From contig JANNBB010000026.1 of the NCBI GenBank assembly GCA_031385005.1, forward strand, positions 151,478 to 215,477: a stretch of 64,000 nt of DNA. The letters are read 5' to 3'. Position numbers and translations under genes: made by a program. Positions 15,075 through 64,000 of the stretch are shown in pieces. Every line of letters starts with the position of its first letter. The stretch's first letter is position 1. A model generated the notes under the pieces. The model ran no database searches. It saw only the letters and a program-made list of their open reading frames with translations, and was not told the origin of the DNA. The stretch is from Bacteroidota bacterium. GTDB taxonomy: Bacteria > Bacteroidota > Bacteroidia > AKYH767-A > 2013-40CM-41-45.

Positions 15075-15722
15075 TTAAAACGTAATCTCTCCTCTTTCAA
15101 TTTGCAAGACCACGTTTTCAATAGCTTTGTCTTTGCCGGTGGGATCGTATTCTTCTTTGAGGTCGTGATTAAAAAGTTTGGCTACGCTTTGTGAGAAAAA
15201 GGCGTTGAGGGAGCCTTTCATTTGTTTGATGAGATCGAAAGTGGTATTGCCGGTTTCTCTGTCGATGAGTTTGATGAGCACATTGCCTTGGTTGATAGAA
15301 AGTTTTTTTATTTGATCTTCGAAGTCCTTACGCACTTGCTCTTCTACCTGTTTTTTATATTTTCTTTTTTCCCTATCCGAGCTCATGGTCTGCATGCGCC
15401 TGTTCATCTCATTCAGCTTCACCGCTGCGAGACGCGCATAAGGATACACTTTAATCACATTGAAACGAAGACGGTAATATTCCTTCAGGTTTTTCAGATA
15501 ATCGGGATTGCCGTAATCGACTACGTTTACTATCGGCAAATTAACGACAGGAATGGTATCCGTACCTTCAATGATAAAGGGAAGTCGAACTCCTTCTTTC
15601 GTCTGTAAGGGTTCTTGAGCAAAAAGTGAGCAAGTTGGTGTATGCAATAAAAAAAGTGAGAAAGCGAGGCAAACTAAAAAACAGCTTTTACTTTTATGTG
15701 GGAAGATTTTCTTGTTTGTCAT
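15075..15722 (-). CDS. Hypothetical secreted protein (possibly DUF4294-like)
   Basis: 215 aa with a signal peptide and a K/E-rich C-terminal half. Lies 4 nt downstream of the accC-like gene, so probably co-transcribed. The family assignment is from memory and weak. Confidence 0.45.
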   Translation of the reverse strand: MTNKKIFPHKSKSCFLVCLAFSLFLLHTPTCSLFAQEPLQTKEGVRLPFIIEGTDTIPVVNLPIVNVVDYGNPDYLKNLKEYYRLRFNVIKVYPYARLAAVKLNEMNRRMQTMSSDREKRKYKKQVEEQVRKDFEDQIKKLSINQGNVLIKLIDRETGNTTFDLIKQMKGSLNAFFSQSVAKLFNHDLKEEYDPTGKDKAIENVVLQIERGEITF

Positions 15723-49300: not shown

Positions 49301-52300
49301 TACAATTTGTTTGGGTGCAGTCACACAACTTATTGCCTCGGCCAATTTAGCCGGAAAAGCTCTGCAGTTAAATGGAATTAATCAATATCTTACAATACCG
49401 CCTTCAGCATCTTTAAACTTTACAACTAATTTCACATTAGAACTCTGGATGAATCCGGGAAGTCTGGATGCAGGAAGAGGATTGCTGAGTAAAAACCAAT
49501 CAAATCCAAATGGGTCCTATTTTCTTCGTCTGGGAAATGCTTTTCCTTTTTCAGGTTTATCTACAGGAGGACAAAATACCATTAATGCTCCATTGGGTAG
49601 TCTAAGTCTTAATACCTGGTATCATGTAGCTGTTGTTTATTCCAATTTAAGTGGAACGAATAACAATGTAACTATTTATTTAAACGGTAATGTAATAGCT
49701 ACCGGCATTTCTACTGTAGGTCTGAATACGGATTCATTACGAATAGGAATTGACTATGGAAACGTTACCTTCTTAGGGTTGATTGACGAAGTACGAATAT
49801 GGAATAGTCCATTAAACATTTCCACTATTCAAAATTGGATGAATAAACCATTGGACAATTCTCATCCGAATAATTTAAATCTTAAAACTTATTTCGATTT
49901 TAATTTCCCAAGTGGATTGACGATAACAGATTTAAGTGGAAACGGGAACCATGGATTCATAGTTAATAATGCATCAATATTACCTTCGAACGCACCAATA
50001 AATGCAGGTATTACCTATGCTTGGTCACCAACTTCAGGGCTAAGCAATCCAGCCGTTTACAACCCGATTGCAAGTACTACTTTACCGGGAATTCAAACAT
50101 ACAATGTAACGGCAACGGCACAAAGTGGGTGCTCTTCCGGATCTACTTCACTTTTTTACGCATCTCTTTCAGCCCAGGATCCGATAATTACTTCTGCATT
50201 AGGATCAATTGTTTTTTGTAACACAGGAAGTGATTTACTGACTTTACAAAATGCAAGAATCGGAAACCAAATCAAGTGGCAGATTTCTACGGACAACATA
50301 ATATGGCAGGATATACCGAATGCAAATGGAATTTCATATCAAACTTCTGCGTTCACAAGAACAACTTATTTCCGCTCTATTGTTTCCTGTACAGGAAGTG
50401 ATACATCAAATGTTTTGCAATTGACAATAGATGTTCCAACAATTACTTCGACAACAGGAGCCATGCGGTGCGGAAGTGGACAAGTATCACTCCAGGTAAC
50501 GGGTAACGGAAACATTAACTGGTTTGCTAATTCAACGGGAGGCAATTCGTTATTTAATGGCAATACATACCAGCCGACTGTTTCAGTGAGCACTACTTTT
50601 TGGGTTGAGTCGAACATCAACGGTTGTTTATTTTCCGGAAGTCGCCAACCGGTTGTTGCATCAGTTATTCCGGCGCCACTAATCAGTTCATCGAGTTCTG
50701 CAAATTTGATTTGCTCAGGTTCATTTGTCAATTTGAGTGCAATCAGTAGTAACGATCCAAACTACTCTTATGTATGGACACCGGGAAATCTTATCGGTGC
50801 ATCGGTATCCGTTTCACCAAATTTTACTACAATTTATACTGTAACAGCGACTGATACAACTTTGGGCACAAATAATGGCTGTATCGCCACATCAACGAAT
50901 CAGATTTCGGTGAGCACTACTCCTCCTGTGGCAATAATTAGTCCATCATCACCATCAATTTGTAGCACCGGTGGTTCTGTGTCACTTTCAATTTCGAATA
51001 TTTTTCCGAGTACGGTATACCGATGGAATCCGGGAAATTTTCAAGGATCAAGTTATACTGTTTCGCCAACAACAACTACAACCTATACGGTTACTGCTAC
51101 GAAAAGTCCGGGGTGTACAAGTACGGCAAACGTAACGGTAAATTATTCTCCGGTTACACAACCTGTAATCTCAACACAAAACATATTTACTGTTTGTCAG
51201 GGCGACTCAATCACTTTGAGCACTGCAGGAAGTTATACAACATATAATTGGTTTATCGGCACAACAAATATTGGAAGCTCCCCTTCCATTACAATTTCTC
51301 CATTGTCCAACGTACTTTGTTCATTAATTGTCTCAAATGGATCCTGTTTTGCAAATACAACTCAAGCGATTACCGTAAAACCATTTATTCCACCCACTGT
51401 TTCATCAACAAATAATCAAACTGTTTTTTGTGAACAGGATAGTTTATTATTGTCAATTAGCCCCTCCTATCAAAGCTATCTATGGAAAAAAGGATTAGTT
51501 ACTGTATCCACTGCGCAAAATTTTTATGCACTAACATCAGGTATGTATACTGCTAATGTTACTTCGGCAAATGGTTGTACAGCTACCAGAAATATTACAA
51601 TTACAACAAACCCTTCTCCGCCTGTAGCACTTATTTCCACAGCAGGACCAATCTTACTGTGCGATGATGGAAGTAATTCACCCTCTATATTATTAACTGA
51701 TACAACAGGTTCAGGTCCAAATTCCACACTTATCTGGAATGACCTTGGAGGATCAACCGGCAATACTCTATCTGTAAACTATAACGATTTGGATCTATTA
51801 ATAAACGGCAATTCATTCAATTATTACTTTACAGTTACAAATAGTTTTGGTTGTTCTAAAATTTCAAATCTTGTTACAGCAACTACACTTCCCTGCTCTG
51901 CAAATGTTTCATTAAATGTTCGACTATTTTTGGAGGGCTTTTATACTATGGGTGGCAACGGACTGATGGATAATCAAGGTTCAGGTGGCTGTCTCTATTT
52001 AAATGGAATTTCAACTAATCCTTTCGATGTTGATACGGTTACAATTAGTTTAGTAGATGCTTCAACCTTTGCACTAGCAGAGTCTTCCAAGGGAATATTA
52101 AAAACCAATGGCAATGTCAGTGTTTCTTTTCAGAGTCCGGTAGTGCCGGGTTTAAGTTATTATATAATTGTCAATCACAGGAATTCGATTGAGACATGGA
52201 GCGCAAACCCTGTTACTATGAATTCAATTACAAATTATGATTTTACACTATCTCAATCTCAAGCATATGGTAATAATATGGTCAATACTTTAGACGGCCT

Positions 52301-52529
52301 TTATTGGGCCATATATAGCGGCGACATATCAGATGCTGTTACCGGTTCACTAGGAATTCAGGATGGAGTAATTGAGTCACAGGATTACACTGATCTTGAA
52401 AACGCAATTTTATATGTGTTAATCGGTTATGTAGTTGAGGATATTACAGGAGACGGAGTAGTTGAATCCATTGATTACTCTATTATGGAAAATAATATTT
52501 TTCAAAGTATATATACGTTACATCCATAG
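37395..52529 (+). CDS. Giant (5044 aa) mosaic cell-surface adhesin
   Basis: Uninterrupted 15.1-kb ORF with a GTG start and signal peptide. It contains an FN3 domain, a beta-helix repeat region, SprB-type repeats, a GEVED domain (TGETEDY), a LamG/concanavalin-like domain, internally duplicated modules, and the shared C-terminal module. Confidence 0.85.
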   Translation: MYRRFDLNITSIFIWQMFLFALINGAYAQSSSNYSFSTNNNGYLTRDLYSDTINLSTGATQLIGPGTDSDISDETTIGFDYYFMGTNIKTFSCNENGIIELGAHTIPADLSKPSTSAIPNLLAPFGQNLQTGIDGEVRCKLFGTSPNRVFVIEYFNMMISFAGVNNALAGAATFQVRLYETTGILEYVYGQMATNNSVQNLIPVETGWIVNTTPNNFFAIDSLYNTSTIGNWPTFIVPQGSIVNHLNSISEGSRRIYRFTPPQTAVVAPTGLSFSSVAATTMTINWTDSSTNETNFNILISSNNTNFSKISTLNSFSTGTIGTGYNYTVKGLSPNTTYYFRIAANTEAISSPLLAGTRATTIPKAYHWIGTGNTFFEDPAKWNPNRFTPDPTDSLYFDNGLSSTINYVISQSVSKIVVSNNTLLRMNSDGGDTLLISAKIPNAFLIATGSSIINTALFPNTVTISFTNGNGATASISGTLELGKDNSYNTTNCITSVSGTIANAGNVYGATRTNLIFLSTGVYNHKYNVSPGVVPTATWNIGSLCLISGYTANPNILTSLSGQQFYNLTWDCPAQQVYVNLGGFFPASVNGTFKMANGLLRLQTNASPTLVLNNFIQTGGSFDLNNGGGSCTMKVSGTFNQSGGIFAPSAGGGLPILEFNGTSGVQQVNFFNSAPTGSLIYKISNPNGINLTGTGTLTTYFNININCGVRIATVATTPINTFLKLTYNTTSTTLTYEAPSDMTMTPTEFPLVSGPGNVSINMPGSVANMPFSRVIPGSLIMSGGDINLGANSITLGTSSTLPGNLSWASGNIRVTSGSMTRWFNTTGLPTQPGSQIGFFPIANGLDNRNVSIYGTSQFITGGSITVSHSNVPGITTGISISDLGYIIQRRTNSSWTFVNRGIVSNLNSIGIRVTGANLLSSNSPTQLRLTQANSVIGVTANGSGTAPNLRAERINIHSNQLSTTLFIGASDTHLDPYYVATTSGNWSNPAIWSSGIVPGLANNAIIDLGTVVTTDGTNQCKSLTINPGGTLNVPNNSILIDNSLSNNGNLNVTGGDLIINGGQQTAQGFTTTSGSNTVILSGTFTIGPLLGGNKRWIQSGGTATIAGGTININGSILISAGNFNQTNGNIIIDGNNGTSASGSVANGLHLFQVTGGTLSCNGGTIMIVDPPFVASKNSLAISIKTTTTSTNAFTGTHTFIFGNGISNTVGYNVTGFCMETYSSSSGGRVPLKNVIINSGNASGRFVRNTLVNTNGTQIQGTLTINPNSEYRIATNTISRDCIGGHIINNGTLTASGTLTLGGENGIYSIYNPQTISGTGVFQNQQISSTANFSGITLNNPGGITSTIGNISYSGILTFQNGNLSFGNNKIEQIAGGSIAGSFGASSHIKGKFQQHTNTGSFVLNFPIGDNLNYSPVSIIGAAGSVITPGDILVSTFPSEHPLISTANINSSKDITRHYTLQSLNGITYTTGSLSVILNWTNSDIDAGANTTNFVLGKTENGGWVYPTIKSKSANNIYVTDVSSLGDFIVGEKCNLNTNFSYPNSPYCNNGTVTPQFNNGGIAGIFTEPSGLVSINSNTGVINLASSTPGTYIITNTIANTGCQPSSSTANITIIGNSVATVNITSSANPTCSGLPLTFTAVPVNGGNPTYQWQLNNVNVGTNSAVYTNSNLTNGSIIKCIMTTSLTCVAVNQVTSNILSITVNSTPAAPIVTILGSTTISCGGFATLLSSYQGIGNTWSPAGIMNDTLITTAGTFSVTYTDSNNCTSSPSLPVIISLVNQTGPLNGSFTINPGITSCTNYNSLYAIISELNTRGINGTVTIDVPSGYTETAPSGGLQIKMCGLPDSIQPKNTQSITFRKTGSGSNPLLLGNIGNSTQDGIVKIIGTDYITFDGIDVNDTMSTGNSASQIEWGYALLKCNGTKGSSHNTIKNCNISLQKSNISSSGIYLNNHTEQSNVPLIYSGSQGSDQAFRSSFNVFSGNSISNSYSSVSLSGSNFFNDSLNEIGKSGSSPNLFSNVGGGVFATSIISVANQQRVKINNNILNGGDGTTGVLNGIFAYPSSGFSGDIVNNSIRLSSASSAVNGINGINISDGTFGDRINITDNIIEDCNFSIGTTADFNAILSSYSGPGIVDISRNSIRNNNLTTPSFGSFTGINTSGSPQTLNVAANSITGNNLSGFGVFNGINITDSLNPVIVSENIISFNYKTGQAGTLNGISINAANSQTINSNIISENGLPFSSGNNSVFISGITGNFGTGNETINRNRIRKLFILGSNSSQQVINGIRYHDNASSREINNNSIDSLYSLNNSTITGIYSGLALGTVNISANKIFDVNSGGASASACGILTNYAPQLVTISNNIIGRLYTPTSTNSNAIRGMDISGATSIRIYYNTINLDAVGNNVSFGSSGLFVLSTSLLDLRNNIIINNSLPGGSAGADGVTAAFRRNNSTLTNYSNSSNNNLFYAGIPGQNNVIYCEGFANPVVNVASSILDYKAISTLSPRDSASVSENVSFTSLSGADSLFLHINNNGLTYVEGNAKPINGFTTDYDTELRNVINPDIGADEGGFTGIRPSIAVVIPNPGTGQCSAVAHTINANVIPGLNPITSVILSYSFGSATPINLSMTHLSGNNWSATIPSASPSNAVVNWTINATDGTYSQVVSGNYQDEIYSQYSLNINASTTPGNVCSSGTTQLLASVIGTATTSNTYCLPAQNNSGNCISNVEFNTLNNSSGSCLSNTYTLFPQSGSTTTTVVSGQSYLLLTTNVTNSMTWVWIDFNGNGIFETAEGKLIYGSASSGFTTISIPASAVIGATRMRIRSTIPNGILNSASSCTSITTGETEDYLINIIPPLTYLWSPSNGLSDSSIANPLATVNATSTYFVSAYDKYGCTLPSLTTSINIQVLTPPTPPIANNSIQCGTGIPPCSVTGTGVKRWYLNDSIVSPLSGESGNFLVAYSINTTKHFWVSVFDGSCESGRTEVVAFVNQPDPISANASTVSTCTTNPINLSVVQNGANNQYTYSWTALPITGSGIASQISGQNITVVPTAPGTYVYKVRATDISLNCFTEATITVIVREPRISGLVASATSICPGTNDTLSAFTTLNGQATIGTGNLTNSITNGWPTPYGGYYGGTRSRYLILASELTSAGLLAGAIRSLSFNVVQLGGVATFNGFNIKVGHTNLTSLPTTFQSASLTSVFGPANYAPVSGINTHNFSVPFLWDGISNLLIEICFNNNANTNATGNMSCKSTATNFTSAIHFGANFNSSVCGNLSTLGQQMQRPNMIISGQVLSPGQGLINWVWNPGGITGNSIVVNPTLSTTYTVIATNTSTTCTSSNSIHINVRSTPPQPTAHDSVHCGTNVPLCFVNGIGNVYRWYNLPVGGNSIPGESGSTLNQYTSGNPTTFYVSEFDGTCESPRIAVNEGVIKPDSVFAATSAGPYCIGSTINLFTIQTGNTNTYVYSWNSSTSSGSGLPAPQMGQSIAIVPTHSGTYTYTVTATEGNCATVSSVTLTINENPIITAATANPISLCLGEQITLQAKSFVTTSPAAVIGSDTLTNTAGTYPTPFGHSFGGAKEQYLIPASELFASGLQPGNITSLAIDIVDLPLIGSSVFQNFSISMGRTNLTNLPPSVQTGINGMTQVIFIPFDTIHTGINNYTFNNPFNWDGSTNLLIEICFNNNDNGGGQGGNAVVRQSLTSYVSTTGYHISNQQNVCSTNGNASINTFYRRPNFRLGGIVGNDLTSTLSWNWTPGNLSGSLVNIQTSSPGNNTYTVKATNTVGCTSGAGVNVFVYSQSPPPIATNGSHCGNKVPNCSVTGLTGIFKWYLNPTGGTSLAGETNGTLNSYVIGTTTTFYVSEFDGLCESIRVLVIETVIPTDSINIIASSPAVCQGIPITLIANQNGNTSNYSFNWTSSTGGGLLTTSGNQVTATPTIAATITYTVDALDITSGCRWISTINVTSNLSPVVTTTSQADTICLGAVTQLIASANLAGKALQLNGINQYLTIPPSASLNFTTNFTLELWMNPGSLDAGRGLLSKNQSNPNGSYFLRLGNAFPFSGLSTGGQNTINAPLGSLSLNTWYHVAVVYSNLSGTNNNVTIYLNGNVIATGISTVGLNTDSLRIGIDYGNVTFLGLIDEVRIWNSPLNISTIQNWMNKPLDNSHPNNLNLKTYFDFNFPSGLTITDLSGNGNHGFIVNNASILPSNAPINAGITYAWSPTSGLSNPAVYNPIASTTLPGIQTYNVTATAQSGCSSGSTSLFYASLSAQDPIITSALGSIVFCNTGSDLLTLQNARIGNQIKWQISTDNIIWQDIPNANGISYQTSAFTRTTYFRSIVSCTGSDTSNVLQLTIDVPTITSTTGAMRCGSGQVSLQVTGNGNINWFANSTGGNSLFNGNTYQPTVSVSTTFWVESNINGCLFSGSRQPVVASVIPAPLISSSSSANLICSGSFVNLSAISSNDPNYSYVWTPGNLIGASVSVSPNFTTIYTVTATDTTLGTNNGCIATSTNQISVSTTPPVAIISPSSPSICSTGGSVSLSISNIFPSTVYRWNPGNFQGSSYTVSPTTTTTYTVTATKSPGCTSTANVTVNYSPVTQPVISTQNIFTVCQGDSITLSTAGSYTTYNWFIGTTNIGSSPSITISPLSNVLCSLIVSNGSCFANTTQAITVKPFIPPTVSSTNNQTVFCEQDSLLLSISPSYQSYLWKKGLVTVSTAQNFYALTSGMYTANVTSANGCTATRNITITTNPSPPVALISTAGPILLCDDGSNSPSILLTDTTGSGPNSTLIWNDLGGSTGNTLSVNYNDLDLLINGNSFNYYFTVTNSFGCSKISNLVTATTLPCSANVSLNVRLFLEGFYTMGGNGLMDNQGSGGCLYLNGISTNPFDVDTVTISLVDASTFALAESSKGILKTNGNVSVSFQSPVVPGLSYYIIVNHRNSIETWSANPVTMNSITNYDFTLSQSQAYGNNMVNTLDGLYWAIYSGDISDAVTGSLGIQDGVIESQDYTDLENAILYVLIGYVVEDITGDGVVESIDYSIMENNIFQSIYTLHP
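38195..38480 (+). other. Fibronectin type III-like domain in the 5044-aa protein
   Basis: PTGLSFSSVAATTMTINWTDSSTNETNFNILIS...YNYTVKGLSPNTTYYFRIAA. Confidence 0.55.
45513..45930 (+). other. GEVED domain in the 5044-aa protein
   Basis: CLPAQNNSGNCISNVEFNTL...ATRMRIRSTIPNGILNSASSCTSITTGETEDYLINI. It ends with the family-defining GE[VT]EDY motif. Confidence 0.55.
49362..49850 (+). other. LamG / concanavalin A-like lectin domain in the 5044-aa protein
   Basis: LQLNGINQYLTIPPSASLNFTTNFTLELWMNP...TWYHVAVVYS...LRIGIDYGNVTFLGLIDEVRIWNSPL. The pattern is typical of LamG_3 laminin-G-like domains. Confidence 0.6.
51900..52526 (+). other. Shared non-canonical C-terminal module (copy 2)
   Basis: NVSLNVRLFLEGFY...GIQDGVIESQDYTDLENAIL...EDITGDGVVESIDYSIMENNIFQSIYTLHP, about 55-60% identical to copy 1. 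Confidence 0.6.
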
Positions 52530-53898: not shown

Positions 53899-56800
53899 TT
53901 GAAACACTCCAACATGATGATTCAAAATTACCAAAAGTTAAAAACTTTCATTTTCCGGATATTGTTTATTCTCTTTTTGCTAAACGCAATGGCTGATAAA
54001 ACAATGGCCCAGTTAGCGTCCGGAATGCCTTTCAGGTTTTCACCTTCTACACACGCTGTAACACCTACGGTTCCTACACTTATTAATCTTGCTTCACGAC
54101 CGGCAGCTATCAGGGACGAATTCGATACCCTTCTTGTTCCGGCCGGATTCAATTTTACTTTTGCAGGTATTGCTTATGATAGGGTAATTATTTCTACAAA
54201 CGGATGGGTTGCTTTGGCTCCAAGCTCTGTTGCTGTTCTTCCTGCTTATTTTGCTTCAGCATTACCTAACAATTCGTTGAGTACCTATGCGGGCGGACTA
54301 CCATTGATTGCACCTTTATGGGACAATGATTCTTGCAGTCTAATTCAATATGGATTATTAGGAAACGTTTTAACAATTCGCTGGACTGTAAAATGGGATA
54401 AAACTAATGCAGGGGCTTACGGTTCTCCTTTTTGGGTTGTGCTTGACGGAAACACAGGTAACATCGATATTTATTTTTCTACTATCGCTTATGTACCTTC
54501 CGCTTCGGCCAGTGCTTCAGTTGGAATTGCCGGGGTATGTACCGGAGATTTTTATTCAGTAACTCCCAATGCCGCCATTGCCAGTACAGCGATAGACAGT
54601 GTCGCCGAAAACTCAACGGTCGCTTTAAGACCCCAAGGGCACAGATATACCTTTATACCTTATAATGCTAACGACAATTGCTCCGGTCCATTTCCGGCAA
54701 AAAACCTGGGTACGATAAATAGTACTTGTACTTATACTCAGTCAACGACTGTAAACGCTACTGTTTCAGGAGTTGGAAATTGCTCCACTGCTGACGACAA
54801 CGATGTTTGGTTTACTATTGTTAAACCTATAGGTACAACTAATGTAATTGTAACCACTGCCCCATCAGCTTCCTGCCTTTCTGTTTCGGGAACAAGTGTA
54901 GAAGTTTATTCAGCTTGTGGCGGACCGGTTTTAGGATGCGCTACTACTAGTGGTGCTAATCCGGGTTTTGGCGAGGTAACACTCACCCGTTCCGGTTGTG
55001 TTGCTGAAACATTGTGGGTCCGAGTAACAGCGGATGGAGACGTCGCCGGCAAATTTCAAATTTGTGCAAAAAGTAATAATCCGGTAACAGGCAATGCATG
55101 CGCGAGTCCAACTCCTCTTTGTGCTCCGCCATTTAATTTAACCGGACTCAGCACACTTGGAACAGTAAACGATTATAGCAACAACGTGCTTTGCCAATCC
55201 GATTATCTAACAGGTGAAGATTATGTTTTCACTTACACACCAACGGTTACTCAATGTGTAAATATTTCCATCGACGGTACAGGTGCGAATTCATATCCGG
55301 GTTTGTTTCTTCTGGATGGTTGTCCAAACGACACAGATAATTCTGTTTGTGTTGCATCAGCTTCGAATGCATCTTTTGGAGATACCATTGGTAACATTAC
55401 TCTTATCGCAGGACAAACTTATTACATCGTAGTTGACAACAACAGTATTTTGAGCGGGACAACATCAATGCCATTTAATATACACCTAAATACATCAGCA
55501 GCAGCAGCACCTCCGAATGACAACTGCGGTTCTGCTGTGTCGCTTGGAACCATACCGCTAAATGCTACGTGTACTTGGTCTGCTTCATATACAACAAGAT
55601 GTTCAAACCCATCACCCATTGCCGGTTATCCTAATCCGGGATGTGGTGGATTTAATGCCTCAACTACTAACGATGTCTGGTTTACTTTTACTCCAAGTTT
55701 TTCCGGGACGCTGTTAATTAACTCACAAGGAACCGGAACCAATCCTGTAATCCATGGAGGACTTGCAGTTTATACCGGTACATGTGGATTGTTAAGTCTT
55801 GTTGCTTGTGCGGGTGATTCTGTTTCTATCCCATTCATGCCTAGTCTGAGTTTTCCTGTCACCAATACAACTGTTTATTATATTCGTTTTTGGTCAGCAA
55901 CCGGATTTGACCCCGGTGATTTTCAACTTTGTTTTCAAAGTAATTGCTCTCCTCCAAACGATCTACCAATCAATGCTATTCCACTTACTTTAAGTGTACC
56001 TGTAATGGGTGATAATACGTGCAGTACAGGTGCCCAGGAAATGGCTCCATTGGGTTGTACACACGATGGAACCAACGTTTCAAATACAGTATGGTATTCT
56101 GTCGTTGTTCCTGCATCCGGCCAAATTGCTGTTCGAATCAGTCAGCTTTCTCTGGTCGATGCTGCAATTGGTGCATATCTTTTTCCTACCGGTCCGGCAA
56201 ATGCCGCAACTTCGAACACCTTACTTGGATGTAACGATGATATTATTTTTATCACCCAATGCGGCGTTTGTGGAATGACTGGCGATAACGATGCTGCCCT
56301 TGTATTAACCGGAACTCCCGGTTCAACCATTTACTTAAGAGTTGATGGGGCACAATCCTGGACAGGTAGTTTTTGGATCACTGCTATTTCCGGAACTTGC
56401 GGATCTGTTTTTCCTCCTGTTTACAGGAAAGATTGTGCAAATCCCGAATTCATTTGTACAAACAGCAATTACTATTTACCAAATGGTGGAATCGGATCAG
56501 ATGGCAACATCTGTGACTTTACTAATCTTCCTTGTTCCGGTGGAGCCACACGTTCCGAAGTTGGATCTGCCTGGCTGAAATTTACCGTTACTCCGGGAAG
56601 CCAATTAGGTTTTACCATTACTCCAAACGACTCTGCAGCGCCTACATGTAACTACAACTTCTTCCTTTGGGATGTAACCAGTCTGCCAAATTTTTGTAAT
56701 CAAATTGCCACCACACCTCCTCTACGTTGCAATACCGTTGCCAACACGGGGAAAACGGGATTGCAAAATCCGGCCGGTGCAGCTTACTCTGCTTTAGTTG

Positions 56801-58854
56801 CTGCAGCTGCCACTCCGCGTACTTATATGCTATATGTCGAAAATCAAACTTCTGCAAACGACGATGAAGGAGTTCCGGGAACAACAGCCGGATTCATTAT
56901 TGATTGGGGAATCTGGAGTGGAGGAATAAACACAGGTCAAACTTTATTGTCGGGAACTTCAACAACTTCTATCTGGAATGGAACTGTTATCGATACGAAT
57001 TATCAATACTTGCCCAACTGGAAAGGTGTAGGAACTTGTCCTGCCGTTCTGCCTTCATGCACAACAGATGTTTCTATTTCCGCAGCTACTAAAGAATGTT
57101 GGGTAACAGGAAATTCATATGCAAAAAATATAATTATCAACCTGGGCGGAACACTTCGCATAAAGTCAGGTGGAAATTTACATGTATGTGGCGATTTCAC
57201 TAACAACGGAAGTTTAATTTGCGAACCCGGTGCCACCATTACTTTTGAAGGAACATCCTTTCAATACATTTCAGGCGCACTTACGGGAGCTAATTCTTTT
57301 GCCAGCATCGTCATCAACAAAACCAATAGCACTATCGTGTATTTAAATAACAACCTGGATGTAACTGAAAATTTTACTACTGCAAATGCTACCAGTATTT
57401 TCAGTATCAATGGAAAATATTTAAAAGTCGGAGGTGATTTTACCAACGCCTCCGGAGCCACTACTTTTACCGGAATAGGCGGTTCTACTGTTGAATTTTA
57501 TAAACCCATAAATCAATTCTTCACCAATCTGGTCGGTGCTATTACACTCAATCGTGTAGTGATGAATAAACCGCTTGGAAAACTATACCTGAACGGTGCT
57601 TTCAGTACGATGAATATTGACTCGGCATTAACCTTAACTAACGGTATTATCGTAGGACCAAGAATAGTTGGTGCTCAGGAAGTAAATATGAAATATTATT
57701 TACCCACATCCATAACCGGGCACAATGCTTTAAGTTATATCGATGGTAAACTAAGAAGAAAGATTGCAAACCCAACCGGACCTGCATCTCCAGCAATTCC
57801 TGCTTCATACGATTTTCCGGTTGGCGACTCACTTACTCCCGGTGGATATGAAATGGCTAATATTACTTTTATTTCACCTACTCTCGTGAATAATTTGTTA
57901 TGTACATTTCAACCTTGGCCTTTAATGGCTCCACCTAATCCCGGACCAAATTCTCCATTTGAATGTATCTTCGCTCAGTATAATGTCCTCCCCATGTTAG
58001 ACAATGGATACTGGAGTTTTGAAAGAAGTGTTACACCAAGCAATGGGGTTTACAAAGTTACTTTAAACAATACCGGTTATACCAATCAATTTGGTGCTAG
58101 TGGCTGGTCAATGGCTACAGCTGCTATTGCCGCCAATGCCAGTCTTACGGCATCGTGGAGTATGGCTGCGAAATGCAGTATGTTAAGTACATTAACAAGT
58201 ACGAGACGTGATAGCTTAAACTCCATTCCATATCCGGGATCATTTAATCACTTGTATGCAACAGCTCAAACAGGTTCTCCATTACCAATCGAGTTGCTTT
58301 ATTTTAATGCAGAAAAATATGGAGAAGGTGTTGTATGTAAATGGGAAACAGCCACAGAAAGGAATAATGACTATTTCGAAGTTGAAAGAAGTTTCGACGG
58401 CGAATCCTTCGTATCTGTGGGCAGAGAAGCAGGATGCGGCCCGGGAATTTGTAATGATTCCCGCAGCTATTCTGTAACAGATTACGAACGATGCAAGGGA
58501 ATTGTTTACTACCGACTCAAACAAGTAGATATAGATGGACTGTTTTCCTATTCAGATATTGTTGCAATCAATTGTACCGATGTCAAAGACCTTGTAAGCC
58601 TTCATCCAAATCCTGCACAGTCTTCTATCACTTTATCTTTTAATCAATCTTCAGACTGTATTGTGATGGTTAGTATTATCGACTATACCGGTAGAATTGT
58701 TTATTCAAAAAAACATTCCGCAATAAAAGGATTTAATAAAATTCCAATTTCTATCGAAGAACTTGCTGATGGGGTTTACAATGTTGATATACAAACCGAC
58801 GGTAAAAGCAATGAAAAACCACGTCAGGTTAGATTCTTCAAAGAGTTAAAATAA
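53899..58854 (+). CDS. Large (1651 aa) secreted protein with a canonical T9SS type-A C-terminal sorting domain, unknown function
   Basis: Signal peptide. The C-terminal ...LHPNPAQSSITLSF...GVYNVDIQTDGKSNEKPRQVRFFKELK is a type-A CTD. It is preceded by the same LPIELLYF...YYRLKQVDIDG.FSYSD module as ORF 139..2619. The track start is TTG, and ATG at 53914 is the likely real start. Confidence 0.8.
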   Translation: MKHSNMMIQNYQKLKTFIFRILFILFLLNAMADKTMAQLASGMPFRFSPSTHAVTPTVPTLINLASRPAAIRDEFDTLLVPAGFNFTFAGIAYDRVIISTNGWVALAPSSVAVLPAYFASALPNNSLSTYAGGLPLIAPLWDNDSCSLIQYGLLGNVLTIRWTVKWDKTNAGAYGSPFWVVLDGNTGNIDIYFSTIAYVPSASASASVGIAGVCTGDFYSVTPNAAIASTAIDSVAENSTVALRPQGHRYTFIPYNANDNCSGPFPAKNLGTINSTCTYTQSTTVNATVSGVGNCSTADDNDVWFTIVKPIGTTNVIVTTAPSASCLSVSGTSVEVYSACGGPVLGCATTSGANPGFGEVTLTRSGCVAETLWVRVTADGDVAGKFQICAKSNNPVTGNACASPTPLCAPPFNLTGLSTLGTVNDYSNNVLCQSDYLTGEDYVFTYTPTVTQCVNISIDGTGANSYPGLFLLDGCPNDTDNSVCVASASNASFGDTIGNITLIAGQTYYIVVDNNSILSGTTSMPFNIHLNTSAAAAPPNDNCGSAVSLGTIPLNATCTWSASYTTRCSNPSPIAGYPNPGCGGFNASTTNDVWFTFTPSFSGTLLINSQGTGTNPVIHGGLAVYTGTCGLLSLVACAGDSVSIPFMPSLSFPVTNTTVYYIRFWSATGFDPGDFQLCFQSNCSPPNDLPINAIPLTLSVPVMGDNTCSTGAQEMAPLGCTHDGTNVSNTVWYSVVVPASGQIAVRISQLSLVDAAIGAYLFPTGPANAATSNTLLGCNDDIIFITQCGVCGMTGDNDAALVLTGTPGSTIYLRVDGAQSWTGSFWITAISGTCGSVFPPVYRKDCANPEFICTNSNYYLPNGGIGSDGNICDFTNLPCSGGATRSEVGSAWLKFTVTPGSQLGFTITPNDSAAPTCNYNFFLWDVTSLPNFCNQIATTPPLRCNTVANTGKTGLQNPAGAAYSALVAAAATPRTYMLYVENQTSANDDEGVPGTTAGFIIDWGIWSGGINTGQTLLSGTSTTSIWNGTVIDTNYQYLPNWKGVGTCPAVLPSCTTDVSISAATKECWVTGNSYAKNIIINLGGTLRIKSGGNLHVCGDFTNNGSLICEPGATITFEGTSFQYISGALTGANSFASIVINKTNSTIVYLNNNLDVTENFTTANATSIFSINGKYLKVGGDFTNASGATTFTGIGGSTVEFYKPINQFFTNLVGAITLNRVVMNKPLGKLYLNGAFSTMNIDSALTLTNGIIVGPRIVGAQEVNMKYYLPTSITGHNALSYIDGKLRRKIANPTGPASPAIPASYDFPVGDSLTPGGYEMANITFISPTLVNNLLCTFQPWPLMAPPNPGPNSPFECIFAQYNVLPMLDNGYWSFERSVTPSNGVYKVTLNNTGYTNQFGASGWSMATAAIAANASLTASWSMAAKCSMLSTLTSTRRDSLNSIPYPGSFNHLYATAQTGSPLPIELLYFNAEKYGEGVVCKWETATERNNDYFEVERSFDGESFVSVGREAGCGPGICNDSRSYSVTDYERCKGIVYYRLKQVDIDGLFSYSDIVAINCTDVKDLVSLHPNPAQSSITLSFNQSSDCIVMVSIIDYTGRIVYSKKHSAIKGFNKIPISIEELADGVYNVDIQTDGKSNEKPRQVRFFKELK

Positions 58855-58986: not shown

Positions 58987-59517
58987 CTAATTTTTCAAAA
59001 TCCTCAAATACTCCTTCCATGGGCCAACTTCCTCTCTATATTGATGTGCCATGACTCTAGCAATTTGTGATAAATGATCCAAATCGTGTACTACCCAGGT
59101 TGCGAGCAGGTTTTTCAAAATGACCTCACCAAAAGCAGGATGAATAGCAGTACGGTTTAAATCGGCAACCTGAATGTTTCGGCTTTTCAGTTTCCTGATA
59201 TTTTCCATTCTAAGTTGACTAAATTCCTCAATAATTTCCTGTAATGATTTTCCGACACTTTCCTGAAATTGCGCAAAACGATCAAAGGATGTAAATTTTC
59301 TCACAGCATTTTCAGAAAGAATAATATCCAATCTCTGTATCCAATCCGCTCGTTCTCCATGAACCAAATGACCAACAATATCGTAGGGCGACCAACTCTC
59401 TCCTCCTTCATTATTGCCGGTCCACTCCGGTGAAAGTCCATTTAACAATTTACTCAAAACCTCCGGCGTACGCTCCAATATTTCTATTGAATGATTGATG
59501 CTAAATTCAAGTTTCAT
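58987..59517 (-). CDS. DinB_2 family protein
   Basis: 176 aa. The W.P.DIVGHLVHGERADW and VVHDLDHLSQI motifs are typical of DinB_2 (DinB/YfiT-like). Confidence 0.6.
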   Translation of the reverse strand: MKLEFSINHSIEILERTPEVLSKLLNGLSPEWTGNNEGGESWSPYDIVGHLVHGERADWIQRLDIILSENAVRKFTSFDRFAQFQESVGKSLQEIIEEFSQLRMENIRKLKSRNIQVADLNRTAIHPAFGEVILKNLLATWVVHDLDHLSQIARVMAHQYREEVGPWKEYLRILKN

Positions 59518-59583: not shown

Positions 59584-61509
59584 TCAATAATCTCCTCCAA
59601 TTGGTCTTTCATTCAATTTGTCCTCGCCGGGAAAGAGTGGCAATTGCGATGGTTTAGAAGTAAGATAAGTTGTATCCGTTAACGATTTTAAAAAAGATAT
59701 AAGTTGAAATTTTTCCGTTGGAGTCAGAAGTAATGAGTCGCTGCTTAAGGTTTGTAAAGGAACCTTATAACCCAAACCGGATCCGCCACCCACATCATAG
59801 AATTCAATCACCTCTTCCAATGTTTTGAAAACACCATTGTGCATATAAGGTCCTGTTACCTCTATATTACGTAAGGTAGGAGTTTTAAATGCATGTCGGA
59901 ATATGGGTACATCAATTACACCGGCACGTCCGATATCCGGATCGAGTTTTGGTTTATATCCTTGCTTTAGTTCAGGTACACCGATAATTTCCCATTCTGT
60001 TTCCACATAATCCGGAGGCATTAACCCATTAAATAAAGGTATGAAATGACAGGAAGCACAGTTTCCTTTGCCCATGTAAATATTAAATCCTTCCTTTTCA
60101 TCAGCGGTTAGTAAATCTTCCCTCCCACTAATTGTTTTATCGAACCTGGAATTCATACCAACAATTGAACGCTCATATTCAGCAATCGAAGTTAGAATAG
60201 AACGATTGGAAATAATTGTATCCTCTGTTCCAACATAGGCATTCCTAAAGAGTCGGACATATTCGGGCGATGTACGTAATTTCAAAGCAACCTGACTGAA
60301 ATCATTATGCATTTCGAGAGCATTGCTCATAACCTGCCCGGCCTGATCTTCAAAAGTAAATGCCCTCCCATCATGAAAAAGCTTTCGCTGAAAAACAGCG
60401 TTCACAATAGTAGGCGCATTTCGGGTTAAAAATTTACCTGGTTCGAAAGCCTGGCTCTTCGGTAATCCATCGGAGAATCCTTTATCCGGTTGGTGACAAG
60501 AAGCACATGCCCTCAGATTATTAGCTGATAAAACCGGATCAAAAAACAATATTTTTCCCAATTCGACAATACGTTCTTTATCAGACAACCTTTTTGCAGG
60601 TAAAAAATAATTGGAATTAAATGCATGCGGGTCGAAAACAGAACGGTTATGGAAGTTTATTGCAGTAGTATTCATTGTTTCCTCCCGTACAAAATAATCA
60701 CGAAAAGAAACCAACTTTTCACTTACCGGAATATAATATTGCATATAAAATTTAAAGTAATCAGGATCCTCCCCTGCTTTAACTTCATTCAAATATGCTA
60801 CGGCATTATTAATTGAAATAAATAGTTCTTCTTTTACATCTACTTGTTTTCCTTCAGCTAAAGGATAAGCTTCCAATAAAATTTTTTCATAAGAAATCAA
60901 CAGGGCCTTCGACTCCTGAACACCGGTACGACTTTCCGCTGTCTCGAAATTGGCAAAACCAAGCATAAACTGTCTGATCAAATGCATTTGCATAGCATCA
61001 AAGACATCCCGATCGTGAATTTCCATTGATTCAATAGATTGATTAATATTTCTTAATAAACTATAAATATTATCGATCTCACTAATAATTCTCTTTCTAA
61101 AAAAACGAACACTATCACTATAAAGCATTGATTCGATATACTGAAAACCATGCGGCTCTACATAATTGGTGATTTCATCGTCCTCTGCCATTTCTAATAT
61201 AATCGGGCGATTGATGAATCGTGCATCACCGGGAAAAAATGCAATCACAAAGGGCTCTATAGACTTATATTCTACTCGTGCTTTAGAAAGATAGATTTTA
61301 GCAGAGTCAAGGGAAGATGGGGATTTCTTGAGATTTGAAGTGAGATTTTCTAGGGTAAAGTTGATTTTTTGGATTTCGCGGGAATAAATTCTTTTAAAAC
61401 CAAAACCCAAATCAACTTCAAGATTCAATTTATTTAAAAAAAAAGAAGATAAAATAAAATAAAATAGTACTAAAAAAGAAAATTTCAAAAGTGTTTTAAA
61501 ATAAATCAT
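59584..61509 (-). CDS. Di-haem cytochrome c peroxidase (CCP/MauG family) with a ~300-aa N-terminal extension
   Basis: 641 aa. The C-terminal ~330 aa carry two CxxCH haem-binding motifs (CASCHQ and CASCHF) in CCP-like spacing. The N-terminal 300 aa (signal/TM then a helical region) have no assignable family. The gene overlaps (ATGA) the upstream 509-aa gene. Confidence 0.75.
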   Translation of the reverse strand: MIYFKTLLKFSFLVLFYFILSSFFLNKLNLEVDLGFGFKRIYSREIQKINFTLENLTSNLKKSPSSLDSAKIYLSKARVEYKSIEPFVIAFFPGDARFINRPIILEMAEDDEITNYVEPHGFQYIESMLYSDSVRFFRKRIISEIDNIYSLLRNINQSIESMEIHDRDVFDAMQMHLIRQFMLGFANFETAESRTGVQESKALLISYEKILLEAYPLAEGKQVDVKEELFISINNAVAYLNEVKAGEDPDYFKFYMQYYIPVSEKLVSFRDYFVREETMNTTAINFHNRSVFDPHAFNSNYFLPAKRLSDKERIVELGKILFFDPVLSANNLRACASCHQPDKGFSDGLPKSQAFEPGKFLTRNAPTIVNAVFQRKLFHDGRAFTFEDQAGQVMSNALEMHNDFSQVALKLRTSPEYVRLFRNAYVGTEDTIISNRSILTSIAEYERSIVGMNSRFDKTISGREDLLTADEKEGFNIYMGKGNCASCHFIPLFNGLMPPDYVETEWEIIGVPELKQGYKPKLDPDIGRAGVIDVPIFRHAFKTPTLRNIEVTGPYMHNGVFKTLEEVIEFYDVGGGSGLGYKVPLQTLSSDSLLLTPTEKFQLISFLKSLTDTTYLTSKPSQLPLFPGEDKLNERPIGGDY

Positions 61510-63035
61510 TTTTGTAACCTTTTATTAATTTTCATTTGAATTGCTTTTTTATGATTATAGTTATCGAAATTCATTATAGATATAAACCACTCATCAAAAG
61601 GTATCATCTCAGGACTTTTTATGTTCCAACTAAATAGTAAATTTCCGTCCTTCAATTTACTGAATTCGGATGATCTAATCTCATAAACAGTCTTAAAATT
61701 AAAACTTTCATGTACTAAACTAGTAAATATTTTTAAAATTAACTTAGATCTTTCATAAAAAGCACCTTGACCTTTCACCTTGCTCATGTACTTTCTCATA
61801 CTTTCAATACTATTTTCTGCCAATATTAACTTATTTGTTACAATATAGTTCATAACTGTAAATATCCTAATACCAATGTTCCAACCATCCTTATCAGTAT
61901 CTAAATGCTTACAGTTTTTTAGATACAAAGTTGTTTGAACATAATTCATATTTATAAAATTAATTACCGCTGCAAAAAACATAAATTTAGCCTTTAAATA
62001 TTTAGAAATAATTACATTATCTATTTTTGCAAATATTTTATTCATACAATTCATTGAATCTTTTAATTCCCCACTAAAATAATAATTATAGAACTTCATC
62101 TCTGTAACAAGAAGCTCATTAAAATCATTACGAGTAGGGGATTTTGCAATTTTATCCAAATAATAAAGTGATTTATTAAAATTTAAAAGCATTGTTTCAC
62201 ACTCAGCTATGTTCAAAAGACATGTTGCGAAATAACTATTAAAAACAAAATTTTTATTGCGCTGTAAGTATTGAAATAATTTTTTGAAATTGTTAAGACA
62301 GGAAAAGTAATCTCCTGAATTATAATATTGAACGCCTTTTAAATTAAACAAATTAATTTTGATACTTTTAGATTTAGTTCGCTCATAATCATTGCCTACC
62401 TTTTTAATAGCGTTTTTCAAACTTAATCCATCCAAAACCTTTTGTCTAAAATCAAAATTTGAACTATAGAGCCTTATTAAATATTGTGAATATTTTAATG
62501 CAATGTTACATTCATTATAATACTGAATGCTCTTAAATACTTTATTGTATTCACTAATTCCTTGCCTTAAAGACATTTTGACTAGTTTCTTTTCCAGTGC
62601 AATAATTAAATAATCGTAGTATTCAACTTTAATAGATAGTCGAATTGCTTGATTTAAAACAAGCAATGCATATTTTGTTATTCCTCGATAAGCTAAAGCA
62701 TCATACAACAAAATCTTCTTTCGAATTAATAACACTTGTTTGCTTTTCAAATCAAAAAGTTCATTATTAAACATTAATTCATTTGAAATCAAACCCTCAA
62801 AAACCTTTTCGGTTAATCTTTGAAGCAGCTTCCGTAGAGTATCTGTGCTAATATCATTCTTAAATAAATTAAATTGAATTGAGCTTCCATTTTCAACAAT
62901 CGCTTCAAATAGCGTTCTGGATAATTTGTCAACTTTATCATTTGAGCGCTTATAAAATATTTGTTTGCGAAGTATCTTTATTTCAATTTCTGTAAGTTTT
63001 GAAAAAACCGTACATAATCTTTCAAATTCCATCAT
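61506..63035 (-). CDS. Hypothetical 509-aa K/N/Y-rich cytoplasmic protein, operonic with the CCP-like gene
   Basis: No signal peptide and no recognisable domain, in a low-GC region. A paralogue lies at 63524..>64000. Confidence 0.5.
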   Translation of the reverse strand: MMEFERLCTVFSKLTEIEIKILRKQIFYKRSNDKVDKLSRTLFEAIVENGSSIQFNLFKNDISTDTLRKLLQRLTEKVFEGLISNELMFNNELFDLKSKQVLLIRKKILLYDALAYRGITKYALLVLNQAIRLSIKVEYYDYLIIALEKKLVKMSLRQGISEYNKVFKSIQYYNECNIALKYSQYLIRLYSSNFDFRQKVLDGLSLKNAIKKVGNDYERTKSKSIKINLFNLKGVQYYNSGDYFSCLNNFKKLFQYLQRNKNFVFNSYFATCLLNIAECETMLLNFNKSLYYLDKIAKSPTRNDFNELLVTEMKFYNYYFSGELKDSMNCMNKIFAKIDNVIISKYLKAKFMFFAAVINFINMNYVQTTLYLKNCKHLDTDKDGWNIGIRIFTVMNYIVTNKLILAENSIESMRKYMSKVKGQGAFYERSKLILKIFTSLVHESFNFKTVYEIRSSEFSKLKDGNLLFSWNIKSPEMIPFDEWFISIMNFDNYNHKKAIQMKINKRLQK

Positions 63036-63172
63036 ATCTTAATAAATTATATTTAATAATTTAAACATATTTTTTTGAAATAACACTACAAATTTTGTGT
63101 CCCTTTTTGGTTAATAATTTCCATTGAGGACAGTTGCTTAACAAATATATTTGTAAAAATAAAAATAATAAA

Positions 63173-63487
63173 ATGGAATCAAAATTCAAAGTAAACGATA
63201 TTCTTTTTAGTCTTGGTAGCACTTTGCGACTATTAAGAATGAACAAAGGATTTAAATCTGCTGAAATATTCAGTTATGAGCATGACTTAAATAGAACAGC
63301 TTATTGGAGGTGGGAGAATGGAGAAAATATAACAATGAAAAATTTTTTAAAATTATGTGAAATCCACAATATTTCACCCAAAGAATTATTTGAATTACTG
63401 GAGGCAAAATACAATTCCCCAGCTAAACAAAATTTACTAAATGAACCCGGCAGCGTAGCATTAAAACATCGAAAAATTAAAATTTAG
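63173..63487 (+). CDS. XRE-family helix-turn-helix transcriptional regulator
   Basis: MESKFKVNDILFSLGSTLRLLRMNKGFKSAEIFSYEHDLNRTAYWRWENGENITMKNFLKLCEIHNISPKELFELLE is a Cro/C1-type HTH. The track ORF starts earlier at 63134, but ATG 63173 is the more likely start. Confidence 0.6.
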   Translation: MESKFKVNDILFSLGSTLRLLRMNKGFKSAEIFSYEHDLNRTAYWRWENGENITMKNFLKLCEIHNISPKELFELLEAKYNSPAKQNLLNEPGSVALKHRKIKI

Positions 63488-63523
63488 TCAAATAAATTGA
63501 AAAATTAAATGACTCAAACTAAA

Positions 63524-64000
63524 TTATTTTAGCATTTTCTGGTCAAACCAATAATTAAAATTTATTAGCTCAGGGGATTTAATTTCCCATTTCAAATCAA
63601 TATCGCTTGACAATAACATTTTAAAATATTTCTCCTTTTTCTTATAAACCATTTTAAAGTTGTAATTTGATCTAACCAATGCAAATAAAACTTTAAGGAT
63701 AATTAAATATCTTTTTTTAACTATCCCTCCTCTTGAAATTCTCTTTACATATTTTTCTAGATTTTGCATTTGAAAATCTAGAGATTCGAACTCATTTAGT
63801 TCAATCCTATTAAATATTTCTAAAATCCGTTTATTTATATTCCATCCTTGCCTGTCTCTTTCTATTTCATTTGATTCATTAAGATTCGCAATTGAGCTAA
63901 CATAGTCTTTATTAACATAATCTATACAGGCTTTAAAATAATAGAATTTACTTTTAATTATTTCACTATCAATTTTTTTATGATTAATATTTAAAAGCGA
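63524..64000 (-). CDS. Partial (5'-truncated by the window edge) paralogue of the 509-aa protein
   Basis: Hand-translated: ...DRQGWNINKRILEIFNRIELNEFESLDFQMQNLEKYVKRI...NYNFKMVYKKKEKYF...WEIKSPELINFNYWFDQKMLK. It aligns with ...KDGWNIGIRIFTVMNY...SFNFKTVYEIRSSEF...WNIKSPEMIPFDEWFISIMNF of ORF 61506..63035. The frame is open to position 64000. Confidence 0.5.
   Translation of the reverse strand, partial: SLLNINHKKIDSEIIKSKFYYFKACIDYVNKDYVSSIANLNESNEIERDRQGWNINKRILEIFNRIELNEFESLDFQMQNLEKYVKRISRGGIVKKRYLIILKVLFALVRSNYNFKMVYKKKEKYFKMLLSSDIDLKWEIKSPELINFNYWFDQKMLK

Follow-up and report, generated by a model that had tools for sequence, protein, structure and literature searches.

RusR-like TPR proteins of the FAM500 family, a conserved promoter repeat and an M75-MauG-like haem enzyme gene: a candidate regulatory cassette in Bacteroidota

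Genes at the locus

The right-hand end of a 64,000-nucleotide (nt) stretch of Bacteroidota DNA (contig JANNBB010000026.1; the whole stretch is hereafter the window) carries a gene for an exported di-haem enzyme of 641 amino acids (aa), a 509-aa gene directly upstream of it, a divergently transcribed gene for an XRE-family helix-turn-helix (HTH) protein and, running off the window end, part of a second copy of the 509-aa gene (Table 1). We refer to the family of the 509-aa protein as FAM500, and to the 509-aa protein and its paralogue as FAM500-B and FAM500-A, respectively. We consider it about an even bet that this locus is a regulatory cassette that controls the haem enzyme and not a biosynthetic locus. 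The enzyme is of an ordinary kind; the interesting part is the regulator family with its peptide and promoter partners, which lies mostly outside the window or at its edge.

The open reading frames (ORFs), the ATGA overlap of the FAM500-B stop with the start of the enzyme gene (which reads AAATGATTT), the divergent HTH gene and the low GC content recorded in the initial annotation, which was made from the sequence alone, are all present. The frame at the window end had been taken for a second copy of the 509-aa gene, and the fragment is indeed a paralogue, with 34% identity to the 509-aa protein over 148 aa (E=8e-28). A contig from a near-identical strain (L001; GCA_031418095.1, a Bacteroidota metagenome-assembled genome (MAG)) overlaps the window end and reaches 5.6 kb beyond it, and FAM500-A was read from this contig at its full length of 489 aa. 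Past FAM500-A, the contig continues with a divergent 75-aa ORF, a gene for a receiver-only response regulator, a 58-aa ORF, DUF2400 and BatA. Records exist for the 508-aa form that starts at the second Met and not for the exact 509-aa product.

Table 1. Features of the window and of related loci. Coordinates are those of the window unless a locus (L number) is named.
Feature	Position	Strand	Basis or remark
641-aa exported M75-MauG-like fusion gene	59584..61509	(-)	ORF listing
Di-haem CCP/MauG domain, residues ~310-641	59584..60582	(-)	Pfam, alignment
Tyr571 codon	59797-59799	(-)	Alignment to MauG Tyr294
CxxCH codons	60493-60507 and 60046-60060	(-)	Haem sites, residues 335 and 484
M75 (imelysin/EfeM/EfeO/Algp7)-like helical domain, residues ~33-275	60685..61413	(-)	Profile search
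GFQYIE motif replacing GFHR[LI]E (HxxE) metal site	61132-61149	(-)	Residue alignment
FAM500-B, 509 aa, predicted cytoplasmic all-alpha TPR protein	61506..63035	(-)	ORF listing, AF2, consensus searches
Candidate -7 box TATGTTTA for the FAM500-B/peroxidase operon	63062..63069	(-)	26 nt upstream of ATG
Direct repeat TGTCCC-N14-TTTCCA, candidate operator/activator site	63098..63123	(+)	Between divergent XRE and FAM500-B promoters
Repeat half-sites	TGTCCC 63098-63103; TTTCCA 63118-63123	(+)	
XRE-family HTH ORF, mechanical call from TTG 63134	63134..63487	(+)	ORF listing
Bacteroidota-type -7 box TATATTTG of the XRE promoter	63146..63153	(+)	23 nt after repeat, 19 nt before ATG
XRE-family HTH gene, preferred start ATG 63173, 104 aa	63173..63487	(+)	Promoter box position
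FAM500-A, C-terminal 158 aa (489 aa in full)	63524..64000, open to window end	(-)	Open frame, paralogy, L001 extension
Repeat sites in L001	L001 4186-4209 and 6536-6561		Equivalents in about 25 other loci
Conserved 58-aa ORF (…TIITGG…)	L001 3460-3636	(-)	Downstream of peptide gene
Receiver-only response regulator	L001 3688-4128	(-)	Downstream of peptide gene
75-aa peptide gene of the window's FAM500-A	L001 4338-4565, just past window end	(-)	Divergent ORF
Peptide-gene arrays	L013 8937-9611; L016 8974-9642; L020 8979-9464; L023 9150-9641		Divergent from FAM500
Peptide genes	L025 1514-1717; L035 3725-4587; L036 3753-4585		Divergent from FAM500
Abbreviations: AF2, AlphaFold2; CCP, cytochrome c peroxidase; TPR, tetratricopeptide repeat.

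An AT-rich region from ~61500 to the window end had been read as horizontally acquired. The compositional break lies exactly at the junction of the 509-aa and 641-aa genes: the peroxidase gene has a host-like GC fraction of 0.36, whereas the three AT-rich genes stand at 0.26, 0.28 and 0.24 against a window mean of 0.379, and GC is 0.25-0.28 across 61-64 kb. Only FAM500-A, XRE and FAM500-B are AT-rich (GC 0.22-0.32; GC at third codon positions (GC3) 0.20-0.28). The same trio in a relative of higher GC (L002, 8007-11542) has GC ~0.24-0.32 and GC3 ~0.21-0.28, with flanking genes, including both peroxidase copies of that locus, at GC 0.43-0.48 and GC3 0.46-0.57. Low GC is a property of the regulator trio and not of the enzyme, and it persists in the higher-GC relative. 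It is not unique to the FAM500 region of the window, since further patches with GC 0.28-0.35 lie at 10-15 kb (10398-15034(-)) and 52-54 kb, the former holding small accessory genes (two DUF1801, DUF6970, a glyoxalase-fold gene and unassigned ORFs). Several genomes carry the cassette at the same DHOase-BatA-DUF2400 site, its proteins being only about 40-44% identical between them, which makes a recent horizontal acquisition seem unlikely; of the earlier proposal, the atypical composition stands and the recent transfer does not.

Elsewhere, three giant ORFs dominate the window, at 2655-10289(+) (2544 aa), 37395-52529(+) (5044 aa) and 53899-58854(+) (1651 aa), the last of which ends in a type IX secretion C-terminal signal.

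FAM500 proteins, the promoter repeat and small peptide genes

Pattern scans of genomes and metagenomes yielded 40 FAM500 loci (18 genome, 22 metagenome), and all those with a named source come from Bacteroidota or Flavobacteriales MAGs. A word-index search had returned seven homologues, a prefilter artefact on this low-complexity protein, while re-search with the family alignment missed the A paralogues and a 31-sequence FAM500 alignment was too divergent for the metagenome scan. The XRE-adjacent copies form one clade, B, which is monophyletic in the tree. Within this clade the peroxidase gene follows FAM500-B in seven of eight genomes (window/L001, L002, L004, L007, L009, L017 and L033), at a spacing between an overlap of 4 nt and a gap of 14 nt, and the XRE orthologues are 99-112 aa in all B-clade loci. 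The functional module that the initial annotation saw in the 509-aa gene, the peroxidase and the XRE regulator is borne out by their tight coupling in these seven distinct genomes. Its proposed test, the co-occurrence of 509-aa homologues with peroxidase genes, succeeds in the B clade and fails in about 30 of the 40 FAM500 loci, which have no peroxidase nearby; in turn, the fused peroxidase occurs without any FAM500 gene in L026, L027 and L030. The co-occurrence is real but clade-specific.

The XRE protein matches HTH_19 (2.8e-5) as well as HTH_3 and HTH_26 in Pfam, and a PADLOC 'control protein' (3.8e-7); FAM500, the receiver and the small ORFs had no PADLOC match. The ATG is the most likely start of the XRE gene, as the longer ORF from TTG takes in a conserved -7 box. 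The receiver (146-165 aa) together with the 58-59-aa ORF is also found in L002, L004, L009 and L033, and a receiver gene lies beside FAM500 in at least 12 loci, being duplicated in L038 and L039, with the repeat described below in its promoter.

The initial annotation saw no recognisable domain in the 509-aa protein, which is rich in L/K/N/I/F/S/Y. This holds for the single sequence, which matches no Pfam or NCBIfam family; searches of Protein Data Bank (PDB) sequences with FAM500, single or as a profile, also gave nothing significant. Structure prediction and consensus searches supersede that description. The AF2 model of the 509-aa protein (predicted local distance difference test (pLDDT) 83) comprises 25 helices that form a TPR-like solenoid behind a helical head of ~90 aa. 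Its Foldseek matches are generic TPR proteins, the best bacterial ones being RapF, NprR and the Rap proteins of pLS20 and phi3T (E about 1e-3; query-normalised template-modelling score (TMq) 0.4-0.47). FAM500 consensus sequences match TPR_MalT, TPR_2 (4.5e-8) and other TPR families.

These consensus sequences also match the NCBIfam family BT_2802_fam (NF058569) over nearly its whole length: that of the single-copy members aligns residues 6-500 with profile positions 3-497 of 502 (E=7.4e-11), that of all members aligns residues 1-498 with positions 1-499 (E=6.5e-7), and that of the B clade matches at E=4.4e-10. The link to BT2802 was drawn from such hidden Markov model consensus sequences and from one natural member (L005), which matches the family as a single sequence at 5.7e-5. 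BT2802 is RusR, encoded immediately upstream of the ribose locus (rus) of B. thetaiotaomicron and required for rus activation (bioRxiv 10.1101/574913); its authors describe it as having no homology to regulators earlier linked to polysaccharide utilisation loci (10.1101/574913; PMC12596196). On the strength of these profile matches, FAM500 appears to be a remote sister family of the RusR-type regulators within one superfamily and not a member of the BT2802 family itself, and its proteins, no longer "domain-less", are best regarded as predicted RusR-like TPR regulators.

We found a shared promoter element in these loci. The pattern TGGAA[AG]-N14-[GT]GGACA is present in the spacer between XRE and FAM500-B of every B-clade locus, with only two more occurrences in 534 kb. 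Read toward XRE it is TGTCCC-N14-TTTCCA, and its general form is TGTCy-N14-T(G/T)TCC. A related TGTCy-N14/15-TTGTCC lies before the receiver genes of A-type loci and before the peptide genes of single-copy loci, and the repeat recurs in independent metagenome loci, including L032 and L033. The half-site variants track the paralogue, TTTCCA going with B and TTGTCC with A and singletons. TAnnTTTG is the known -7 consensus of Bacteroides promoters, and aligned XRE-B intergenic regions have a conserved TAnGTTTA block in common. The repeat keeps one orientation relative to the TAnnTTTG box and lies 22-25 nt upstream of it in eight of nine receiver promoters, in four of seven XRE promoters (the other three have near-matches to the box) and in some peptide promoters. 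A scan with the sigma-70 consensus was uninformative (26 sites vs 27.8 expected), Bacteroidota promoters being different from that consensus.

FAM500 is the sole protein common to all repeat-carrying loci and is, by phylogenetic footprinting, the best candidate to act at the repeat, presumably from a class II activator-like position (about -37 to -62). Among other roles considered for the repeat, that of an XRE operator was rejected, as the repeat is also found in loci without XRE, and that of a sigma-54 promoter was rejected for unsuitable spacing and hexamers; a promoter element of an extracytoplasmic function (ECF) sigma factor is conceivable. The conservation of a tiny ORF upstream of the receiver gene, MS[IKN]YFHFVPFLG, is explained by the overlapping DNA repeat.

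Small ORFs of 22-90 aa divergently precede every A-type and most single-copy FAM500 genes; FAM500-B of the window has no such gene of its own. Their products have a common motif at the N-terminus, M-[LIV]-E-x-[LI]-I-x-[IL]-L, followed by variable polar tails, with heads such as MLETLITILLS…, MIxxISTxLIAAS… and M..II.ILKALGII…, and in the clade of the window the tails end in repeated [IV]V[IV]PD[VI]DP. Tandem copies are frequent, numbering four in L016, L020, L035 and L036, three in L013 and L023, and two in L022, L024 and L025. The strict motif occurs nine times in a 429-kb six-frame translation, every time divergently beside FAM500. Substitutions avoid codon position 2, and length variants of 29, 39 and 45 aa are in frame at both ends; both observations argue that these ORFs are coding. 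The peptides have no canonical signal peptide, lacking a positively charged N-region, and no modifying enzyme, exporter, processing protease or Opp importer is conserved near the peptide and FAM500 genes in the loci examined. A cluster for ribosomally synthesised and post-translationally modified peptides was rejected for want of conserved modifying enzymes. In the L016 group the neighbouring genes, as read from translations with no family search, are the biotin genes BioB, BioF and BioD along with unannotated, housekeeping-looking ORFs.

The fused haem enzyme

The 641-aa protein begins with a hydrophobic signal or anchor, and its C-terminal half belongs, as initially described, to the two-CxxCH CCP/MauG type, with a Pfam CCP_MauG match of 3.2e-44 on residues 314-464 and both haem-binding motifs (C335, C338, H339, C484, C487 and H488) invariant among 61 relatives. 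The top profile match of the haem domain is MbnH (8e-63). Matches to the NCBIfam models for MbnH (TIGR04039; 1.3e-54, 185.6 bits vs a cut-off of 362.85) and MauG (TIGR03791; 2.8e-51, 174.5 bits vs 443.85) are both below threshold. Y571 aligns with Tyr294 of MauG (…ILFYN, chain position 294) and with the Tyr of EEVIDIY in MbnH, and it too is invariant in the 61 sequences. Alignments to bacterial CCP (bCCP) stop just before this residue, and the family has its invariant Tyr where bCCP has Met. The column of the bCCP distal His71, estimated from the alignment ranges, is occupied by the hydrophobic residues 352-357, so that neither the His/Met ligation nor the distal His of bCCP is seen in the alignment of the 641-aa protein, and its second haem would have His/Tyr ligation. 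The inter-haem position is Y, W or H across the family, being His in the window protein.

An AF2 model of the 641-aa protein (pLDDT 91.5, predicted template-modelling score (pTM) 0.89) matches bCCP, MbnH and MauG in Foldseek with target-normalised scores (TMt) of 0.7-0.83. As the top 50 matches of the full model cover the haem domain only and include no M75 protein, the assignment of the N-terminal part rests on profile-sequence evidence. The initial annotation had offered an imelysin/EfeO-like domain as a hypothesis for the N-terminal ~300 aa, and the profile searches bear it out: a 61-sequence profile of this domain matches four different solved structures over about 210-240 positions, namely 7q1g (4.5e-10), Algp7 (3at7; 1.4e-9), EfeO (7wgu; 1.6e-9) and 6jbo (9.6e-9). 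The motif GFQYIE aligns with the GFHRLE/GFHRIE of M75 proteins, with G121 kept in 61 of 61 sequences, the Glu in 54 and Gln (Q123) in place of the metal-binding His of HxxE in 60. The window protein scores 14.5 bits against a Peptidase_M75 gathering score of 23.5 in Pfam, and none of ten sampled relatives matches Peptidase_M75 at E<=0.05.

That the 641-aa architecture might be unusual was not upheld. A word-index search with the N-terminal 312 aa yielded two fragments only, and an exhaustive search of representatives was needed; this returned 358 clusters (50% identity) at E<=1e-3, and 91 of the 150 best have a length of 580-657 aa and two CxxCH motifs. All ten sampled relatives carry CCP_MauG behind an N-terminal domain that has no Pfam assignment, and in their sources the fusion relatives are named 'cytochrome c peroxidase' or 'hypothetical'. 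A literature search on imelysin and cytochrome c peroxidase found Leptospira transcriptomics papers only and nothing on a fusion. The 641-aa protein is, as judged from these comparisons, a predicted exported M75-MauG-like fusion of an architecture common in Bacteroidota. By analogy with its relatives it is likely to use peroxide to oxidise a substrate that it binds, be this a metal ion or the side chain of a protein or peptide, and we favour this reading over simple detoxification of H2O2.

Several features of the neighbourhood were observed along the way. The fusion gene recurrently adjoins large type IX secretion cargo genes (Por_Secre_tail), in the window (53899-58854(+)), in L004 (13564-14601) and also in L026 (11636-13822), L027 (5708-7933) and L030 (10232-17938), an adjacency that may be due to nothing more than how common such genes are in the genomes concerned. 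L002 carries two tandem fused peroxidase genes (11545-13467 and 13606-15519) downstream of FAM500-B. A gene for a DinB_2 / YfiT-like putative thiol transferase (58987-59517(-)) comes after the peroxidase gene in the window strain and in L009, and not in other relatives.

Interpretation and comparison with known systems

Starting from the firm parts of the analysis, namely domain identities, homology, gene order, and motif conservation and geometry, we infer DNA binding by FAM500, a direction of control, a ligand and an enzyme substrate as follows. If the locus is a regulatory cassette, FAM500 would sense a ligand in its TPR solenoid and act at the TGTCy-N14-T(G/T)TCC repeat, about -37 to -62 from the Bacteroidota -7 box. 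FAM500-B, possibly with or through XRE, would set how strongly XRE and the FAM500-B operon, haem enzyme included, are expressed, and FAM500-A, partnered with a small peptide gene, would control the operon of the receiver and 58-aa ORF via the variant TGTCT-N14-TTGTCCC. The output would be an exported enzyme that applies MauG-type high-valent haem chemistry to something held by its EfeM-like domain. Two known pairings offer an analogy for such an enzyme: in EfeUOB iron uptake, EfeO/EfeM-type M75 proteins are partnered by the haem peroxidase EfeB, and MbnH acts on the partner protein MbnP.

Several observations weigh against regulation of this kind. The consensus sequences reach 28.7-41.7 bits against a cut-off of 550 for NF058569, which the window protein does not match, and no DNA-binding domain or HTH match to Pfam was found in FAM500. 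To our knowledge, the DNA binding of RusR itself is a prediction only in the literature. The N-terminal ~90 aa of FAM500-B are modelled at moderate confidence (pLDDT 50-78), and residues 1-85 of the FAM500 consensus weakly resemble adaptor-type helical domains (NNH6, 0.015; EAD10, 0.058), the EAD10 similarity covering 1-76 of 77 profile positions; both domains are of the conflict-system adaptor type. The B-clade locus L012 has no peroxidase gene, and the repeat of A-type loci stands before the receiver gene and not the peptide gene. The repeat could also be bound by another factor or belong to an alternative-sigma promoter.

A second explanation, which we consider possible but doubtful, is that FAM500 proteins are intracellular receptors for the divergently encoded peptides, in the manner of Rgg/SHP or PlcR/PapR, and activate the peptide promoter in positive feedback, with FAM500-B and XRE forming a branch further down through which the haem enzyme is turned on. 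It would account for the divergent, often tandem (2-4) coding genes of 22-90 aa with their shared N-terminal motif, for the repeat and -7 box that precede peptide genes in single-copy loci, and for the peptide receptors RapF, NprR and the Rap proteins of pLS20 and phi3T as best bacterial structural neighbours. However, these structural matches amount to generic TPR similarity at the scores given above, the peptides lack the charged N-region of a signal peptide, and no conserved exporter, protease or Opp importer lies nearby. The hydrophobic N-terminus of the peptides is equally explicable as a membrane anchor, FAM500-B of the window is without its own peptide gene, and RusR, the only characterised relative, answers to a sugar cue. 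A fuller version, in which FAM500, peptides and repeat make up a Bacteroidota cell-cell signalling system that is an evolutionarily independent analogue of RRNPP/Rgg-SHP, with A as the receptor and XRE, B and the peroxidase as the output, seems to us slightly more doubtful still. RRNPP-type systems have not been reported outside Firmicutes (PMC10075063).

It is improbable that the region is a horizontally acquired accessory or conflict island, in which an XRE 'control protein' and TPR proteins with effector-associated N-termini happen to lie beside an unrelated housekeeping peroxidase. The low GC and GC3 of A, XRE and B even between the higher-GC flanks of L002, the PADLOC match of XRE and the weak EAD10 and NNH6 similarities at the FAM500 N-terminus are what such an island might show, but the borders in the window and L001 hold no integrase, transposase, repeats or tRNA, and FAM500 itself has no PADLOC match. 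The shared chromosomal position of cassettes diverged to 40-44% identity, the tight, conserved spacing to the peroxidase gene and a promoter motif common to the family across the phylum also speak against it. Somewhat more improbable still is a maturation module, suggested early on, in which the enzyme modifies a local secreted peptide or the 58-aa ORF product with the 509-aa protein as chaperone or scaffold: the MauG-type Tyr, the best match to MbnH as a partner-protein-modifying enzyme and the small peptide genes of the neighbourhood would suit it, but peptides and peroxidase are distributed independently (the same peptide family in about 20 loci without peroxidase, the fused peroxidase in hundreds of clusters without FAM500 or peptides), the peptides of loci with a peroxidase have no conserved aromatic residue, FAM500 is cytoplasmic and the enzyme exported, FAM500 has a regulator as its homologue, and no link between the enzyme and neighbouring peptides was found. 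That the enzyme matures some secreted product in the manner of MauG or MbnH is conceivable.

Regulators of the RusR type form a class specific to Bacteroidota that has been identified genetically at one sugar-utilisation locus, without a mechanism. Their putative sister family FAM500 offers testable handles on this class in a candidate operator, a promoter geometry, paralogue-specific half-sites and recurrent small-peptide partners. Should the peptides turn out to be ligands, Bacteroidota would gain their first described signalling system of the peptide receptor-propeptide kind. The fusion enzyme is widespread and often annotated just as 'cytochrome c peroxidase', and a dedicated regulator would provide a route to its inducing condition.

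Compared with MauG and MbnH, the 641-aa enzyme has the same two c-type haems, Tyr at the position of MauG Tyr294, absence of a distal His at the bCCP His71 position and an aromatic or His residue between the haems. It differs in its scores below both NCBIfam cut-offs, in an inter-haem residue that is His and not Trp in the window protein, and in its covalently fused M75 domain, which is found in neither MauG nor MbnH; no mau or mbn genes lie nearby, the substrate genes mauA/mauB and mbnP being absent from the window and from every related locus. With EfeO, EfeM, Algp7 and imelysin it shares a helical fold family by profile search, the conserved motifs R-x-x-Y-[KE]-x-I-E and G-F-x-x-x-E, and an M75 domain that is functionally paired with a haem peroxidase of the periplasm. 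In contrast to these proteins, that partner is a fused c-type di-haem enzyme instead of a dye-decolourising (DyP)-type peroxidase, Gln replaces the metal-binding His of HxxE in 60 of 61 members of the fusion family, and no EfeU permease gene lies near the fusion gene.

The FAM500 loci resemble the RRNPP/Rgg systems (Rap-Phr, NprR-NprX, PlcR-PapR and Rgg-SHP) in the placement of a cytoplasmic TPR-type protein beside one or more small, often divergent peptide genes, in short hydrophobic peptides with a variable C-terminus, in a regulator-associated site in the peptide promoter, and in the TPR fold (AF2 solenoid and TPR Pfam consensus matches), with peptide binding by FAM500 being putative only. 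They differ in that PDB searches detect no sequence homology of FAM500 to Rap, NprR, PlcR, PrgX or Rgg, that FAM500 has no fused XRE-type HTH, a separate HTH gene being present in the B branch only, and that FAM500 belongs to a Gram-negative phylum and its peptides are without a canonical signal peptide or evidence of export and re-import.

The comparison with RusR sets FAM500 apart as a separate family (29-42 bits vs 550), duplicated into A and B paralogues and flanked by genes for peptides, a receiver, XRE and a haem enzyme where RusR has a sugar-utilisation locus. At its own loci, FAM500 is tied to a specific direct-repeat promoter motif. Along with these differences, the two families have in common a length of about 500 aa, a restriction to Bacteroidota, the absence of a recognised classical DNA-binding domain, a collinear full-length profile match and a gene position directly upstream of, and co-oriented with, the presumed target genes.

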